A stretch of DNA of 64,000 bases from a virus, in IMG/VR virus record IMGVR_UViG_3300034102_002101, positions 56,667 to 120,666 of that record. The stretch is one strand, 5' to 3'. A program made the position numbers and the translations under genes. Within the stretch, counting starts at the first letter, position 1; every line of letters begins with the position of its first letter. The notes under the pieces are model-generated. The model had not been told where the DNA came from, did no database searches, and was given only the letters and a program-made list of their open reading frames with translations. Positions 7,798 through 56,726 of the stretch are shown piece by piece.

Positions 7798-10700
7798 ATG
7801 CAAACATACATCACTTCACAATCGGCAGCGATAAACTACTCGACGTTTATAACCCAAGAGGATATAAATAAATTATCACTGTCCACCATTTCACCAATGT
7901 ACAGCGATTTTGGTGAATTTGCGGATGATGTCATTGAGTTTTCTATATACAATAACTACGGGGAGTTAGTTTCGTGGGAGACGATATATCCGGAAGTTAG
8001 TAGTACAAAGTATACTGGTTTCTATATCGATCAGAACAATATAAAGAACACTTTTGATGCGTACAACACATACACAAATTATTCAATAGTAACTACTAAC
8101 GGAATAAGAAGAATAGTATTTCCTGTCCTTTCTGATATACAGAAATTAGGATTATCTACCGGTGAGTATAATATCCAATACTTCCCCGCAAAAAACGTCA
8201 TAGGCAACAACGAAAATGGAATAAAGGTGTCCGAGATATCGTCATCCGGCACAGAAATATCTGTTATCTGTAATGATGTAAACCTATCTCAGTCGTTTAC
8301 TTCTTTCTGTAAGAACCTGATACCGGCTTCTGAGTGGACAAGTTATTTGATTGATGGAATGGATTCGGTTAACATATATTCTAAGTTCATAACAGAAAAG
8401 GACAGTATCGGTCTAGACTTCAACGCAATAAAGTTCTTTTTCAATTTCAAGACAGATAATGAGGTACTGTTCTTCGTCTATGATATATTTAATGGTGTAT
8501 ATTCGGGAAAAAAGAAGTCTAATGGTGATGTATCTAGGACAGACATAGCATCAATAAAAACGCAAGTAGAAAATTATTGTTACTCCCTATACAATACTCC
8601 GTCCAGCTTAGATTCTGTTTTTTTGACCTCTCTAGACATTATAAAAAATATTATAGAAATAGAACTAAAAAAGATATCGAGCAGCGCAACGAACGAAAAA
8701 ACGGTATCGTTTTTCTACAATATATTTACCTCTGTGCTATTAGAGGTGTTCGGTGAAATAAAGAAAAAGGTAATATCTAAATTGTTTTCTCCGATGAAAA
8801 CATGTATAAACTTAGGCAATGGAAAAATATTTCCAGTATTAAATAGATACTATGTAGTGTTGGATGATGGTAGTCTCAAGTTATATTTGAAATTGAAGGA
8901 TAGCATATCTAACATAATTTCGTCGGGTGATATAGTATACGTTACAAATTTTAATACATTAACCGGAATATACCAAAATATTTCTTTAATCAATAAAAAT
9001 TTAATAAATTTTAATTATTTAGGTGGTCCAAACTTCAATGATAGAATCAAGCACGTACAGACCGGAAATTCCGGTAGATCGTATAATTCAGATGAATTAA
9101 ATAGTTCCATATCATCAGTAACAACGATAAATGCGAGCGATAAGATCAACGTCGATTACAGATACTTCGAGAATTTCATAAAGTTCTCATCGGTATCATC
9201 CAGATTGGAAGTATATACAGGTAAAATAAACTTGGTGGAGAATATCGACTCCAGTATAGAGCTACTAAGTAATGTAGAAAATTCAGAAACCGATATTTCG
9301 TTACTTACGGAGAATAAGAATGAGATAATAAAATCGTTTGATGGATATGAAAACTTTCTATACACTAATCCATATTGGTTCGGTGTACATACTACACAAT
9401 ACGGCACGTATTCCATAAGTGGGGATGCACCAGAAACGTCTGGAAGTTTATATGATAGGGATAATACCGAATCGTTATTCAACAATACTCCGGAAACAAT
9501 AAGAGAATCTACTGAGAGTTCCGACTATGTTAAATTTGTTAACATGGTCGGTCACATGTTTGACAATATCTGGATTTATATCGATAATTTTCCACGAACA
9601 AAAACTATAAAAAATAACCCATCTGGTTCCCTGTCTCCATCTATAATAGGTGACATCATAGAATCGTATGGGTGGGAGTGTAATAATGGGAATCATAACC
9701 TAGAACTCCTACAGGGTCTATATAATAATAGTAATGGGAATTCGAACCAAACTCTTTCCGGTAATGAAAGAACTAATGAGATATGGTCAAGAATAATAAA
9801 TACACTACCAGAAATATTAAAAACCAAAGGAACATTAAAATGTGTCGAGTTAATATTGGCTTGCTACGGTATTCCCAAAAACATAATAAAAATAAAAGAA
9901 ACATCAACATCGAATAGTGACGGTGAACTATATCATAATGATATAATAAAATATTCTCCTAAGTTCACAAAGTATAACGAATACGTTGAGTGTGCATGGT
10001 TAAATGGTTGTAGATCATTAGAATTAACAATAAAATATCAGTCGTCCGATTACACAAAAAATTCAACTAATAGATTAGTTCAGTGTGGGGATAAATGGTC
10101 AATAGGGACGATAAAAGGAAGCAAAGATAATGGAAATGTATTTTTTACCATAAGGGATGTATCCGGTTCTGTTAATTCACTAATCGTCCAAAATGTACCT
10201 ATTTTTAGTGGAGATAATTATGATGTACTATTAAGAAAATATGACACTGAATTAATAACCGTACCTACTCGATTTGAACTTACGGTGTTAAAAATGGAAA
10301 ATGGTTCACCATCTTTTGTAGCCTCAGAAGATATATACCTAAGTGGTAGTTTCTTAGACACATTTAATTCCGGTTCAGAGTTAATCAGATTTGGTAATTA
10401 TAATGCCGACCAAAACAACTACTTCATCGGTAATATCGACGAGATAAAAATATGGAATAGCTTTATCGCCGATGTTGAGTTTATAGATCATTCTACGATG
10501 TATGACAACTTTTCTACAGATGATCTATCCAAGGCTCGGGATAATTTAATATGTAGAATGGCATTTGACACACCAGTTGATTTATATAATCCAACCGGTT
10601 CGTTCTATCTACACGCGAATAACGGATTACAAAATAATGGTGTAGAATATATCAAGATGTATAACTTTAGAGAAGCAGATATTTCTACTAAAGTTGTTAA

Positions 10701-53147: not shown

Positions 53148-53548
53148 AAGTCGTATATCCATCTACCGAAGTTAGCAGCATATTCCTTTAATAGAATACC
53201 AGCCATTATATTTGCTTCGTCCTCAATTGGTCCACCAATATTCTGAACAGGTACTCCCTCTTTTATCTTACCTTCCTGTTTTTGTTTTAGATGTACAAAT
53301 TCATGTGCCAATGTTCTGGCGCAATCTATTGGTGCTCTTTTTTCTATACGAGAGATAACGTCATTCGTTATTGGATCAAATCCACCAGTAGATATTCCTT
53401 GTATCTGACCTACTTTTGATAATATAATGACACAATCTAATGTTATTCCCAATCTCTTTATCGTCCACGCACAAAAGTGTACCAAAAATTTCTTAACTTC
53501 TGGTTCAAGAGTATTTCCCTTGTATATTTTTATAACTTTTGTTGGCAT
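53144..53548 (-). CDS. Small zinc metallopeptidase-like protein
   Basis: RTLAHEFVH.KQ ... IEDEAN..AG. Confidence 0.6.
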   Translation of the reverse strand: MPTKVIKIYKGNTLEPEVKKFLVHFCAWTIKRLGITLDCVIILSKVGQIQGISTGGFDPITNDVISRIEKRAPIDCARTLAHEFVHLKQKQEGKIKEGVPVQNIGGPIEDEANIMAGILLKEYAANFGRWIYDL

Positions 53549-53556
53549 AATAACAA

Positions 53557-53976
53557 TTATGTTACGTAAGCTACGACTTCCCAACGTGGAAACTTATTGC
53601 TTTCCATTTGTGGACGTTCCATATTTTCCCAATTAAATGAAATTTTACTGTTTATTACTTCTGGTCCTTCACTGAATGGATCTTCACCGGAGGTTTTCTT
53701 CCTGAATGTCAGTAATCTACCACCCTTTTCTCCCATAAGTATATCACCAGTAACCATATCTAACTCAAAACCAAATTCATTAAGAATTAAATTGATTGTA
53801 GTTAATGCTTTTTCTTTCTTATCTAACTTGATATTACCACCAAGTTCGCCCTTAGAATGGAACTTATTATTAATTTTCGTTCTTTCTTGTTGTGTAAGTT
53901 TATATCCTTCATTCTCTTTTAGAATTTCCTTGATACATTCCTTAATTATTTCTTTTAATTTTTTGTCATTTTTCAT
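53557..53976 (-). CDS. Hypothetical protein
   Basis: ATATTTATA motif upstream. Confidence 0.5.
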   Translation of the reverse strand: MKNDKKLKEIIKECIKEILKENEGYKLTQQERTKINNKFHSKGELGGNIKLDKKEKALTTINLILNEFGFELDMVTGDILMGEKGGRLLTFRKKTSGEDPFSEGPEVINSKISFNWENMERPQMESNKFPRWEVVAYVT

Positions 53977-54007
53977 ATTATTCATATAAATATCAATTAA
54001 TAAAATA

Positions 54008-54044
54008 AAAAACCCCATAATAAATTAATATTATGGGGTTTTGT
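54008..54044 (-). terminator. Intrinsic terminator closing the tmRNA transcript
   Basis: AAAACCCCATAATA...TATTATGGGGTTTT. Confidence 0.75.
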
Positions 54045-54108
54045 TTCTCTTTATGGTGGATATGTCGATATTTTTGTATTTTTTATCTCATCCACCATAT
54101 TTATTAAT

Positions 54109-54678
54109 ATGAAAACAATAAATGTAACATGTACACAATGTGGATTAATATTCGATAAATTATTAAAAGAATACAATAGATGTATAAAAAATGATATGAA
54201 GCATTTCTGTAGTCGTTCGTGTACGAGAACATTCACCAACCACAATATGCCTAGTGGATACTGGAACACATGCCCTACCAGTAAAAACGTAGAAGGCTAC
54301 ACTAGAGAAGATGAATTATCTCCATTCAGACAATTTCTTAGGTCTAATAAGTACAAAATCAAGAAAAAAGAAGTATCTATCGATGAGAAATATTTAAAAG
54401 AATTATGGAATTCACAGGATGGTATATGTCCATATACGAAACTAAAAATGGTGTTACCAAAAAATACAAACCGTATACATAACAGTAGAACATTAATTCG
54501 GGCTAGTCTAGACCGAATTGACTCATCTAAGGGTTACATTGACGGAAACGTAGAATTTGTTTGTTACGGTATTAATTTAGCAAAAAATAATTTTTCTAAA
54601 TCCGAAATGTTAAACTTTATAAATAGTATACGTTACGATGGGAATACTCTTGGCATTACTCAGCCGCAACCAACGTGA
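54109..54678 (+). mobile_element. HNH homing endonuclease (DRID.SKGY type), antisense to tmRNA
   Basis: CxxC/FCSRSC N-terminus; Q.GICPYT...ASLDRIDSSKGY..GNV..VC..IN..KN. Confidence 0.8.
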
Positions 54679-54699
54679 AGGTGGTATTCCTCTGCGACC
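54641..54699 (-). ncRNA. HDV-like (theta-type) self-cleaving ribozyme
   Basis: P1 GGUCGCA/UGCGGCU with G1.U wobble, P2 GGAAUAC/GUAUUCC, P3 ACC/GGU, L3 UUCACGUU, P1.1 UC/GA, J4/2 CCAA; begins at the first base after the tmRNA discriminator. Confidence 0.8.
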
Positions 54700-55079
54700 T
54701 GGACGTGCGGAGAGTTGCACTCCGGTGTTTAAAACTGATCAATAACAATATCTACAAGCTTTCTCTTTCTATATAAAATGAAATTGGAAAGAAACCATTT
54801 CAAGTTTTTTTAGCCGTGACTTGACCATTTACTGCTAATTCCTAATGGTGCATTGGTTGTAGTTACACCAATTGAATTACTACCAAAATCTTATTCAATC
54901 GATGGGGCAGTTATTAGGCTGCTACGAGGGCTGTTTCTTCGGTTAGGAGGAAGTCAGCCTTAACTAGATTATTCATCTTGTCATTTATGTTTTTTGGAAT
55001 GTTTATTTAAAAGAGACAACCCCATCTCTTTGCTGTCATTGTTACCTATCCATTCTAAGTCGAATCTAAAAACACGCCC
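54700..55079 (-). ncRNA. ssrA: tmRNA
   Basis: 5' GGGCGUG...AGAUUCGAC; 3' T-arm CGGAG-UGCAACU-CUCCG and CACGUCC-A with G3.U70; tag (A)DKMNNLVKADFLLTEETALVAA** after AUAAAU; no encoded CCA. Confidence 0.92.
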
Positions 55080-55092
55080 AAATTATATTAAA

Positions 55093-55299
55093 TCAATACC
55101 AAAAATTAGCGATCCAGTCAACGAACAAGTTCTCATTGTTAATATCCCAACGTTCGAGCGGGAAATCTATTCTTTTCTATTCGAATGTTTTAAAACTCAT
55201 ATAGAGACATCTACTTTAGTGAAAAGACCGAACCGTTTATTTATTATAATACGGTTATGTAATATTTAACGTTTTTAAATCGCTAATTTTTGGTATTGA
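55093..55299 (-). ncRNA. Putative structured RNA closed by a perfect 21-bp inverted repeat
   Basis: 55093-55113 is the reverse complement of 55279-55299; lies between a promoter and the tmRNA. Confidence 0.5.
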
Positions 55300-55322
55300 A
55301 AATTGTTAAAGAACTAAGGATA

Positions 55323-55350
55323 AATATACACGACTTACCGATTAAGTCAA
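55323..55350 (-). promoter_or_regulatory. sigma70-like promoter for ncRNA/tmRNA
   Basis: TTGACT-N16-TATATT (TG-extended). Confidence 0.55.
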
Positions 55351-55357
55351 CATAATT

Positions 55358-55633
55358 TTAATCGATATCTGTCCAATGTTTCTTTGGTTCCTGTGTTGGT
55401 TGGTTTGGTAATTTTTTGATTGCGTATCCTTTGATGCGTTTGGCATCAAGTATTTTTAAACCAATGGATTCACTTCCCTTTAAATTTTGTATTATTACAT
55501 TACTCAACGCTTGTGCCTCCGATGACGCAATTGTTACTCCATCTATTCTTCTACCATTAAGATACACGTTTTTTACCTCATACTTATCTTTTCCTTCCGA
55601 TAGCAATTCTTTTAATATTTTCGTCAATTTCAT
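55358..55633 (-). CDS. Hypothetical protein
   Basis: ATATTTATA 3 nt upstream of ATG. Confidence 0.55.
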   Translation of the reverse strand: MKLTKILKELLSEGKDKYEVKNVYLNGRRIDGVTIASSEAQALSNVIIQNLKGSESIGLKILDAKRIKGYAIKKLPNQPTQEPKKHWTDID

Positions 55634-55717
55634 ACGTATAAATATAAACGAACACAAAAAATCCATAACCGATTAAAGTTATGGATTGTTATTCTAATTT
55701 GGCGGAAGACGGAGAAT

Positions 55718-56490
55718 TTATTTATTATCATACATATCAATAAAATTAACTCCATACTTTTTTTTCGCGTATTGGATAAATGGAAAAATTTCGTTCTTTC
55801 CTATAATTGTTAATTTTTTGTTGAATTGTGATTTTTTGGCTATCCACTGTGGAGAATCATATCCTTTTATTTCTAAGTATTCATTTTCTGCGATTTTAAA
55901 ATCTGGGAATACTTTTGTTTTTTATTATTAAAATAATAATCAAAACCATGTGTGTTTCTCTCAAACCATATATTATTGTCGATTGCATGTATTACCCAAG
56001 CTAGTTCCCAAGAACTATCGCACCAATAACCTTTATACCAACCAGATTTTCCTCTTCCACCTTTAGATCTATATCCACCACATTTAGAACAGTCCTTCCC
56101 AGCGTCTGCGCACTTTTTACAACAAAATTTTACTTTTTTTCGAGCGGTTAGAAAATTCTTTTTACATACCTCACAAATTTTATTAACTTTATTTCTTTTT
56201 TTTACAATCAAGCGTTTTGTAACTTCTCTTGTTTTATTTAATTCTTGTGCGCATTCCACACAACAACATTTTTTTATAAATTTTACTTTCTTTGTTGTGA
56301 AAGGGTTATTGCAATTTTTACAATTTATTTCAACTAAATCAGCACGTTTACTTTTTCCATTATGTGTCATTGCACACGAATAACAACAAAAAAATTCCGT
56401 CTTTCCGCGTTTTATTAATCTATTGTATTCTCCTATATATCTATCAAATGGCAAATCACAATTCGAGCAAATTAATGATATGGTCTTCAT
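55718..56490 (-). pseudogene. Zn-finger + PD-(D/E)XK (TnsA-like) free-standing endonuclease, frameshifted near 55908 (possibly a sequencing error)
   Basis: GWYKGYWCDSSWELAW; after a one-base shift continues Y.PDFKI...LEIKGY. Confidence 0.7.
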
Positions 56491-56543
56491 AAGTTATAAA
56501 TATACCCCAACAAGTCTTTCTTCCATAATTTTATTTTATTTAC

Positions 56544-56636: not shown

Positions 56637-56726
56637 TGGGGTGAGCAACGAGATTTGCACTCGCACGGAATTTTACTTCCAGCAGCTTCACAGGCTACCA
56701 TGTCTTCTGATTTCATCATACTCACC
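56637..56726 (-). tRNA. tRNA-His(GUG), long variable arm
   Basis: G-1:C73 8-bp acceptor, loop CUGUGAA, CCA. Confidence 0.8.

Follow-up and report, generated by a model that had tools for sequence, protein, structure and literature searches.

A phage tmRNA gene that lacks its encoded CCA end and runs into a predicted HDV-like ribozyme and an antisense gene for a putative HNH-type nuclease

Theta ribozymes, as the main text of Kienbeck et al. 2024 describes them (PMC10879173), are minimal ribozymes of the hepatitis delta virus (HDV) type found at the 3′ ends of phage tRNAs. Collaborative homing, in the passages of PMC6083498 that deal with cyanophage psbA, pairs the free-standing nuclease F-CphI with a group I intron that carries no open reading frame (ORF). 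SegB of phage T4 is described in part of PMC2330249 as a GIY-YIG homing endonuclease encoded in a tRNA gene cluster, with a 27-bp site that includes a conserved T-arm motif. Sections of the 2025 tmRNA database paper (PMC11915505) distinguish three forms of the gene for transfer-messenger RNA (tmRNA), an RNA that rescues ribosomes, namely standard, intron and permuted, and the homing endonuclease genes reported there are of the LAGLIDADG type. The locus described here lies in IMG/VR virus record IMGVR_UViG_3300034102_002101, a linear phage record of 120,666 bases whose last 64 kb (positions 56,667 to 120,666) were analysed and are called the window. A tmRNA gene in it lacks an encoded CCA end and is followed by a ribozyme of the theta type and by a nuclease gene on the opposite strand. 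The locus is probably, if by no means certainly, a tmRNA gene into whose 3′ end a selfish element with a nuclease gene and a theta ribozyme has inserted itself, displacing the old tmRNA end, which is left as a relic. The sequence further suggests that the self-cleaving ribozyme probably keeps the interrupted tmRNA gene working. In the order in which the minus strand is read, the parts are as follows.

54700–55079, minus strand: tmRNA gene, from Rfam family RF00023 and sequence reading, ending at discriminator A54700 with no encoded CCA.
54641–54699, minus strand: HDV-like (theta-type) ribozyme, predicted from covariation to be self-cleaving, with the predicted cut between A54700 and G54699.
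54109–54678, plus strand: putative free-standing HNH-type (beta-beta-alpha-metal) endonuclease gene of 189 amino acids (aa), from PHROGs and predicted structure.
54052–54099, minus strand: hairpin with an 11-bp stem (54099–54089 with 54062–54052) and an A-rich loop, −14.0 kcal/mol, z = −5.84.
54054–54067, minus strand: putative relic CGACAUAUCC-ACCA, forming the 3′ arm of the hairpin, from sequence reading and comparison with other loci.
54009–54042, minus strand: intrinsic terminator, 14 pairs followed by a U run, common to the full, ribozyme-only and empty alleles.
54043–54701, no strand assigned: 659-base block that comprises the hairpin and its relic, the HNH gene and the ribozyme and is missing from the empty allele of a related phage.

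An initial annotation of this DNA had listed the same series, a tmRNA without CCA, a ribozyme, an antisense HNH ORF overlapping the ribozyme, the relic-like letters ending in ACCA and a terminator, and every part was found where it had been placed.

Contigs from four other sequencing runs, aligned to 53500–55700, show that the block is not present in all relatives. One contig of run X7, 3613 nucleotides (nt) long and from a relative, joins 54042 to 54702 with 14 other letters between them, so that ribozyme, nuclease gene and hairpin are missing together. Relative to the window it has 19 substitutions and four gaps over 54702–55288, and 72 other letters and two gaps over 53500–53973. Read on the tmRNA strand, the 14 letters consist of one base that completes the acceptor strand, ACCA, and nine further letters, after which comes the terminator common to both alleles. 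A CCA-bearing empty allele of this kind had been predicted by the initial annotation, and a second example occurs in locus L176. The ribozyme-only state is represented by L104, a 1357-nt contig of the Joint Genome Institute (JGI) that is identical to the window at 578 of 583 positions from 55224 to 54642. Its homology to the window ends at the last base of the ribozyme and is followed by 15 other letters, a shorter version of the terminator and a different gene. The ribozyme of L104 differs from that of the window by a double change from G-C to U-A in P2 and a change from U.G to U-A in P1; these changes preserve the pairs, and the ribozyme therefore looks maintained by selection. A 203-nt contig of run X2 has the same junction. 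In a second tmRNA lineage all three states recur, with CCA and no insert in L176, a ribozyme followed by a terminator in L090, and the full arrangement in L089 and L010; over about 400 nt L176 is 77% identical to the other two, and L090 is 81% identical to L089. The nuclease gene is thus an optional gene at a fixed site, which is the pattern of a free-standing homing endonuclease. A CCA-bearing gene would be regained if the two UCCA repeats recombined, so the empty allele may be either ancestral or the product of precise excision.

These alignments also bear on the quality of the assembly. The junction of tmRNA, ribozyme and ORF in the full allele is crossed by contigs of three other runs (X2 at 54569–54720, X3 at 54524–55013 and X6 at 54373–54794), and the same layout is found in eight further viral loci, six of them distinct. 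A chimeric join between ribozyme and nuclease gene has nothing specific in its favour, since the stretch 54092–54313, left uncovered by the contigs of the four runs, is a gap without evidential weight; an artefact of this kind is extremely improbable and was rejected on the strength of the three crossing contigs.

The ribozyme runs from 54699 to 54641 and fits the double pseudoknot of HDV. P1 pairs 54699–54693 with 54668–54662, P2 pairs 54690–54684 with 54647–54641, P3 pairs 54682–54680 with 54671–54669 and P1.1 pairs 54678–54677 with 54661–54660, with a short P4 in addition. Thirteen distinct sequences were aligned: that of the window, six reached through nuclease-gene loci and six through a pattern scan of IMG/VR DNA. 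Over 19 pairs, 97.2% of the pair cells in this alignment are standard-paired, compared with 29–42% when the partners are slid. Compensatory changes on both sides are present in 11 of the 19 pairs, five of these in P1 and four in P2, and none of 500 shuffles is as good. The first base, G1, stands in a G.U pair closing P1 in 11 of the 13 sequences (G54699.U54662 in the window) and is replaced by an A-U pair in two. C54653, the candidate catalytic base at the start of J4/2, is nearly invariant (at least 90% of the alignment), the exception being L093, in which the alignment of the 3′ half is one column out of register. The predicted cut falls right after the discriminator in 12 of the 13 sequences and one base later in L092/L013. 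A covariance model made from the alignment gives the window copy 82.1 bits, and no other strong match to it exists in the 120.7-kb record, where the next best have E-values of 0.2 and 0.4. The plain minimum-energy fold of the ribozyme gives no signal (z = 0.62), which is expected for a pseudoknot. A narrow ribozyme pattern scan returned only three contigs that were already known, and a home-made HDV descriptor scan was dropped as far too permissive. By the covariation, the fold is an HDV-like double pseudoknot, and cleavage is predicted from it. One ribozyme of this type, at 2940–3400 of L093, stands directly after a tRNA-Glu gene and is followed by an ORF that resembles a GIY-YIG nuclease by eye. 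That ORF is broken only by two in-frame TAG codons, which hints at a TAG-recoded phage.

The gene upstream of the ribozyme is identified as tmRNA by its model score and by its tag. RF00023 matches 54699–55079 on the minus strand with 50.3 bits, against a gathering score of 47, and with an E-value of 3.4e-18 in a search of the sub-region; neither ARAGORN nor an Rfam run over the whole window at gathering scores called it. The tag peptide ends in TALVAA and two stops and is degron-like. The base after the discriminator, where CCA would stand, is G54699. CCA is found at the cut site in none of the 13 ribozyme loci, one of which keeps a single C, as against all four loci in which the nuclease gene converges on a tmRNA gene without a ribozyme. 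Two further features belong to the gene and its upstream region.

54911–54982, minus strand: tmRNA tag reading frame, by translation, ending ...DKMNNLVKADFLLTEETALVAA and then two stops.
55323–55350, minus strand: TTGACT-16-TATATT, resembling a sigma-70 promoter with 10 of 12 consensus matches and lying upstream of the tmRNA region.

The promoter-like site is a consensus match, of a kind no commoner in this region than in shuffles. Between it and the tmRNA gene, a perfect 21-bp inverted repeat enclosing about 200 nt is reported at 55093–55299. The X7 relative has small indels in and beside this repeat (55087, 55093 and 55105), and the 31 bases just past it, 55289–55319, are replaced there by 65 letters. 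ARAGORN also missed the tmRNA in ten related loci that match RF00023 (L018, L020, L021, L022, L025, L028, L031, L050, L070 and L077), and intron-split tmRNAs are overlooked both by ARAGORN and by the Rfam tmRNA search. The tmRNA genes beside these nuclease genes are therefore probably under-annotated, ARAGORN having missed that of the window and at least ten others.

The nuclease ORF begins with a Cys4 zinc finger. It matches the PHROGs families phrog_3322 (E 7.5e-21), phrog_1035 and phrog_3118, and the annotations obtained from PHROGs are endonuclease (7.5e-21), endonuclease VII (2.5e-11) and HNH endonuclease (1.2e-9); a Pfam search found no nuclease domain in it. An AlphaFold model based on 33 homologs has a mean predicted local distance difference test (pLDDT) value of 82.9. 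The best Foldseek matches of the model are all HNH-type nucleases, namely PacI (E 0.015, template modelling score 0.51 on the target), Gme HNH, Cas9 HNH, Cap5 and T4 endonuclease VII, and none of them reaches E ≤ 0.001. The product is taken with moderate confidence, from the predicted structure, to be an HNH-type (beta-beta-alpha-metal) nuclease. The last 12 or so codons and the stop of the ORF, 54641–54678, are the antisense of the ribozyme. Residues 179–187 in this tail are disordered in the model (pLDDT below 50), and in the alignment of 33 sequences a tail of the form ...N(T/A)L(S/G)(I/V)TQxQPT* comes up again with its frame unchanged. By regular expression a QPT tail ends 37 of 92 database homologs, a count that misses ribozyme-bearing genes with other tails (L011, L012 and L013). 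The 92 are those of the best 120 out of 536 database matches that are 150–260 aa long, after removal of duplicates and of P0001, the shorter gene call of the window itself. The conservation of the tail may most simply be read as conservation of the ribozyme.

The hairpin beyond the nuclease gene is more stable than any of 200 shuffles. The relic in its 3′ arm reads CGACATATCCACCA from 54067 to 54054 and ends ...AUCC-ACCA. Its ACCA, the trailer and the terminator are collinear with the empty allele, and the trailers are also similar by eye. A relic resembling the 3′ end of tmRNA recurs at the same position in 8 of 10 loci, which bears out the reading first proposed for these letters. In four of the other loci (L013, L010, L014 and L098) the relics extend into T-stem and T-loop-like sequence; that of L013 agrees with its own tmRNA end in 17 of 19 aligned columns, and that of L010 repeats its tmRNA end exactly over a 9-mer and continues with CCA. 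From these comparisons the relic appears to be a real, degenerate copy of the tmRNA acceptor 3′ strand with discriminator and CCA, and neither merely a hairpin nor only a scar. The caveat of the initial annotation, that the relic might be only a hairpin, stands insofar as the 11-bp stem with 54099–54089 is a conserved hairpin arm, and falls short of the collinear ACCA and of the T-stem and T-loop relics elsewhere.

The nuclease gene and the ribozyme do not form one obligatory cassette; the parts are separable. The cassette proposed by the initial annotation is upheld as an insertion at the tmRNA 3′ end relative to a related phage and is abandoned as a single unit of HNH gene and ribozyme, as each of the two occurs alone. 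In favour of a partial unit are the empty allele, which has neither, the constant frame of the junction between ORF and ribozyme, and the encoded CCA, which is absent from the cut site of all 13 ribozyme loci and present in all four convergent loci that have no ribozyme. A pattern scan of IMG/VR for the ribozyme gave 18 loci, 10 of them distinct, and the proportions among them are biased because the pattern was derived from nuclease-linked ribozymes. Four of the distinct loci have an intact nuclease gene, two have remnants of it, three have no trace and one lies behind tRNA-Glu. In the remnants, of the L098 type and in L087, there are left respectively only the first eight nuclease codons, fused to the ribozyme and accompanied by hairpin and relic, and a 29-residue piece of the C-terminus. 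These intermediates of decay suggest that deletion removes the nuclease gene and leaves the ribozyme in place, and the ribozyme itself cannot be lost because the encoded CCA is gone. Decay of the nuclease with retention of the ribozyme fits the usual life cycle of homing genes with an added ratchet.

Several results weigh against the reading of the locus as a tmRNA gene invaded by a selfish element. Ribozyme alleles with no trace of HNH gene or relic (L104, L090, the L086 type and L099) are what the initial annotation had named as incompatible with a single unit, and a ribozyme that came first with a nuclease that came later accounts for them equally well. Loss of the HNH gene would be sufficient to explain them, since the intermediates of decay exist. 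Two of the convergent loci without a ribozyme, L017 and L019, nest among ribozyme-tailed relatives in a quick tree (SH-aLRT support 97), so the pairing of ribozyme and nuclease has been broken or made more than once. The tree was built from proteins of 150–260 aa (ORFs of viral loci from 140 aa), with exact duplicates and P0001 removed. No Rfam ribozyme family matches 53500–56500 at E-values up to 10. Domains of CCA-adding enzymes (PolyA_pol, PF01743), RNA ligase (PF09414), PNK3P (PF08645) and RtcB (PF01139) were not found in the record, an absence that says little as the record is only about 47% complete by the CheckV estimate. In 7 of 10 loci a hairpin of this kind has z ≤ −2.5, the inner stems varying among them, and hairpins comparable to that of the window occur in 7 of 9 other loci; the hairpin is conserved in its own right and may have a function rather than be a scar. 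The relics are no closer to their own tmRNA ends than to those of other loci (sum 66 versus 62.8 ± 3.8; 4863 of 20000 permutations as high, not significant), and no claim is made that every relic was copied from the tmRNA end resident at its locus. The relics of L098 and L019 have an identical 11-mer. Finally, TCCACCA is about seven-fold over-represented in this genome; taken by itself, this 7-mer is therefore weak evidence, and comparisons with other loci are what the reading of the relic depends on.

Much the same observations can be arranged into an account in which the ribozyme came first. The theta ribozyme would be an ordinary device of phage RNA maturation, an unrelated nuclease gene would have landed beside it later, and the hairpin would be a regulatory or structural element of that nuclease gene. 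Such an order would explain why ribozyme-only alleles exist, including one that is 99% identical to the window (L104), why a ribozyme of the same type follows tRNA-Glu without an HNH gene (L093), and why the HNH gene is without a ribozyme in most of the 79 loci surveyed below. It also agrees with the outcome of the relic permutation test and with a hairpin that is conserved while its inner stems differ. It is nevertheless unlikely, for the X7 empty allele has CCA and none of the three other parts, ribozyme, nuclease gene or hairpin, and the relics of L013, L010, L014 and L098 carry T-loop, T-stem, acceptor and CCA-like letters beyond those of a plain hairpin. The junction between ORF and ribozyme is moreover kept in one frame across diverged homologs, and loci caught in the decay of the nuclease gene exist.

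Invasion by a selfish element, the preferred reading, is also approached through the relatives of the nuclease, of which IMG/VR holds 278. The layouts of the best 79 of these 278 loci were classified with ARAGORN, sequence reading, Rfam searches of 20 loci in which ARAGORN found nothing, and the ribozyme model. In 61 of the 79 the nuclease gene lies beside or inside a tmRNA (49) or tRNA (12) gene.

8 loci, 6 distinct: convergent with a CCA-less tmRNA and ribozyme, the layout of the window.
4 loci (L017–L020): convergent with a CCA-bearing tmRNA and without a ribozyme.
31 loci: same strand as a tmRNA and 40–190 nt 3′ of it, in many cases with a degenerate second copy of the tmRNA 3′ end in front of the nuclease gene.
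10 loci: between tRNA-Ala and tRNA-Leu.
2 loci: overlapping tRNA-Arg.
6 loci (L032, L039, L045, L068, L072 and L084): antisense inside a group I intron that splits the tmRNA in the T-loop, four by Rfam and two by eye.
18 of the 79 loci: layout class unassigned.

The ribozyme model matches 6 of 77 sources, equal to 8 of the 79 nuclease loci, and most nuclease genes are thus without a ribozyme. In L034 (1590–1690) and other same-strand loci, letters resembling AGTAAACGA come after a CCA-less tmRNA, together with a near-copy that repeats the last 16 or so bases of that tmRNA, and in L061 the near-copy comes after the stop of the nuclease ORF instead. Judged from such loci, duplicated tmRNA ends are a general mark of this nuclease family. 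In L052, L075 and L081 the nuclease gene is, by eye, flanked by the 3′ piece of a tmRNA on one side and a tmRNA 5′ start on the other, an order that may mark a permuted gene in two pieces, and RAGATH-9, -20 and -22 RNAs are found 0.3–1.8 kb from these three nuclease loci.

The group I introns of the family offer another origin for the relic. RF00028 matches L032, L039, L045, L068, L077 and the crAss-like phage cr128_1, and no match to it was found in 53500–56500 of the window at E-values up to 10. L077, one of the 31 same-strand loci, has an intron without an ORF in its tmRNA T-loop and a free-standing nuclease gene after the terminator. In the intron-bearing loci the 3′ tail of the intron and the 3′ exon occupy the place of the hairpin and relic of the window. 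The order in the six loci is a GUGGA motif, an A-rich stretch ending in AAUAAUG-like letters, the rest of the T-loop, the T-stem, the acceptor strand and AC, and by this resemblance the hairpin and relic of the window look homologous to intron 3′ end and exon. The locus might then derive from a tmRNA gene with a T-loop intron carrying an antisense nuclease, in which a complete tmRNA 3′ end and an HDV-like ribozyme replaced the intron core and the relic is the former 3′ exon. Six loci with such a split tmRNA, intron and antisense HNH gene exist, with GUGGA 30–45 nt before the 3′ exon, AAUAAUG-like letters and an exon end ...CUCCAC in the same order as in the hairpin and relic of the window, and the relics of L013 and L098 begin in the T-loop. 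Descent from an intron is nonetheless rather improbable. The quick tree separates the nucleases borne by introns from those linked to ribozymes, the non-coding motifs in common are short, Rfam detects no intron remnant in the window, and these data do not tell the direction of change. The intron of cr128_1 (L105, NC_055885.1, around 8220–9030) scores 86 bits and is itself unannotated; it is overlapped on the opposite strand by gp101, an annotated "endonuclease" 43% identical to the ORF of the window, in a 1.2-kb stretch without an annotated feature. This stretch is probably an unannotated intron-split tmRNA.

Taken as a tmRNA gene invaded at its 3′ end, the locus could function and spread as follows. 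Insertion would have pushed the encoded CCA and the trailer of the tmRNA some 650 bases downstream, where they would be left as a degenerate relic before the original terminator. Transcription would start at the promoter-like site at 55350–55323, cross the ribozyme and then the antisense nuclease gene, and stop at the terminator at 54042–54009, and the ribozyme would cut itself off exactly after discriminator A54700. A functional tmRNA would result once enzymes of the host, or of the phage and encoded in the unseen half of its genome, had removed the cyclic phosphate and added CCA. The nuclease would cut alleles of the CCA type, and repair would copy ribozyme and nuclease gene in together; a target in the DNA of the T-arm and acceptor is plausible for the family by analogy with T4 SegB. 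The ribozyme would split this target and so protect the carrier allele, by analogy with collaborative homing. Later the nuclease gene would decay and the ribozyme stay, giving rise to ribozyme-only tmRNA genes. More tentatively, and with the odds somewhat against so full a picture, ribozyme and tmRNA-targeting homing nuclease may be a cooperating mobile pair, a cleaving counterpart of intron and homing endonuclease that is possibly intron-derived, with the relic as a former 3′ exon. The ribozyme would in that case both rescue the tmRNA and make the carrier immune, and the ratchet would lead to a fourth, ribozyme-terminated form of tmRNA.

The surroundings of the locus are those of a freshwater phage. 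The sequencing runs that contain this stretch are labelled lake, freshwater or aquatic metagenome, apart from one run without an organism label, and in three RNA runs only 0.04–0.06 of the words of the stretch are present. A minus-strand tRNA array at 56.5–63.9 kb gives 22 ARAGORN calls, 14 of which reach the Rfam tRNA gathering score, and 21 of the 22 have an encoded CCA end. A blastn search of 53900–55400 against phage records gave no match, and no relatives of a neighbouring 153-aa ORF were found in viral contigs. TCCACCA occurs 39 times in the window, both strands counted, against 5.4 expected, and none of 100 shuffles has as many; the copies lie mostly in coding regions distant from RNA genes, and the complement includes GGTGGA, a Gly-Gly codon pair. 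A 205-aa endonuclease-like ORF at 55873–56490 on the minus strand matches phrog_1271, an HNH endonuclease family (E 2.6e-5), and lies on the strand of tRNA-Ser(CGA), its start 53 nt beyond that gene. Over the first 50 residues, which make up a Cys-rich zinc finger, it has 46% identity to the tmRNA-linked nuclease, and the zinc finger domain common to the two may read tRNA-type DNA.

If this account of the locus is true, selfish nuclease genes would have a second means of residing within essential RNA genes, in which the RNA is cut free instead of spliced. It would explain the origin and persistence of the theta ribozymes that flank tRNA and tmRNA genes, and would add a ribozyme-terminated form to the three described forms of tmRNA gene. 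The series of empty, ribozyme-only and full alleles in two lineages makes the ideas of homing and immunity directly testable.

In literature searches no link emerged between tmRNA and either this nuclease or a ribozyme of the HDV-like or self-cleaving kind, with the limit that the supplements of PMC10879173 and PMC11915505 might list such ribozymes. The words tmRNA, HNH and endonuclease do not occur in the main text of PMC10879173, its supplements being outside the scope, and the word ribozyme does not occur in PMC11915505. Set beside the theta ribozymes as that main text presents them, the ribozyme of the window has the same minimal HDV-like double pseudoknot, with G1 directly after the discriminator of a tRNA-shaped acceptor end, an adjoining RNA gene without CCA, and a place in contigs of Caudoviricetes-type phages. 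It differs in having a tmRNA as partner and a freshwater rather than a gut phage as host genome, and also in being overlapped antisense by a nuclease gene, in forming part of a presence/absence block and in matching no Rfam family. The intron-form tmRNA genes of the database, in the sections cited, are likewise interrupted near the 3′ end by a catalytic RNA, sometimes with a homing endonuclease gene; here the catalytic RNA is HDV-like and terminal, not internal. T4 SegB, from the part of the work referred to, is alike as a free-standing phage homing nuclease tied to tRNA-type genes and co-inherited with its flanking RNA genes, and differs in its nuclease family and in having neither a ribozyme nor a displaced gene end. 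In the F-CphI system, as those passages present it, a free-standing nuclease gene also adjoins a target gene that is interrupted by a catalytic RNA and kept functional by it, and by analogy the catalytic RNA here could protect the carrier allele as well. The RNA of the window is predicted to cleave and not to splice, and the downstream part of the gene would thus be discarded and left only as a relic; L077 is the true intron version of the F-CphI arrangement at a tmRNA. The locus thus combines known kinds of element, theta ribozymes, free-standing homing nucleases and collaborative homing, in a new variant at tmRNA.

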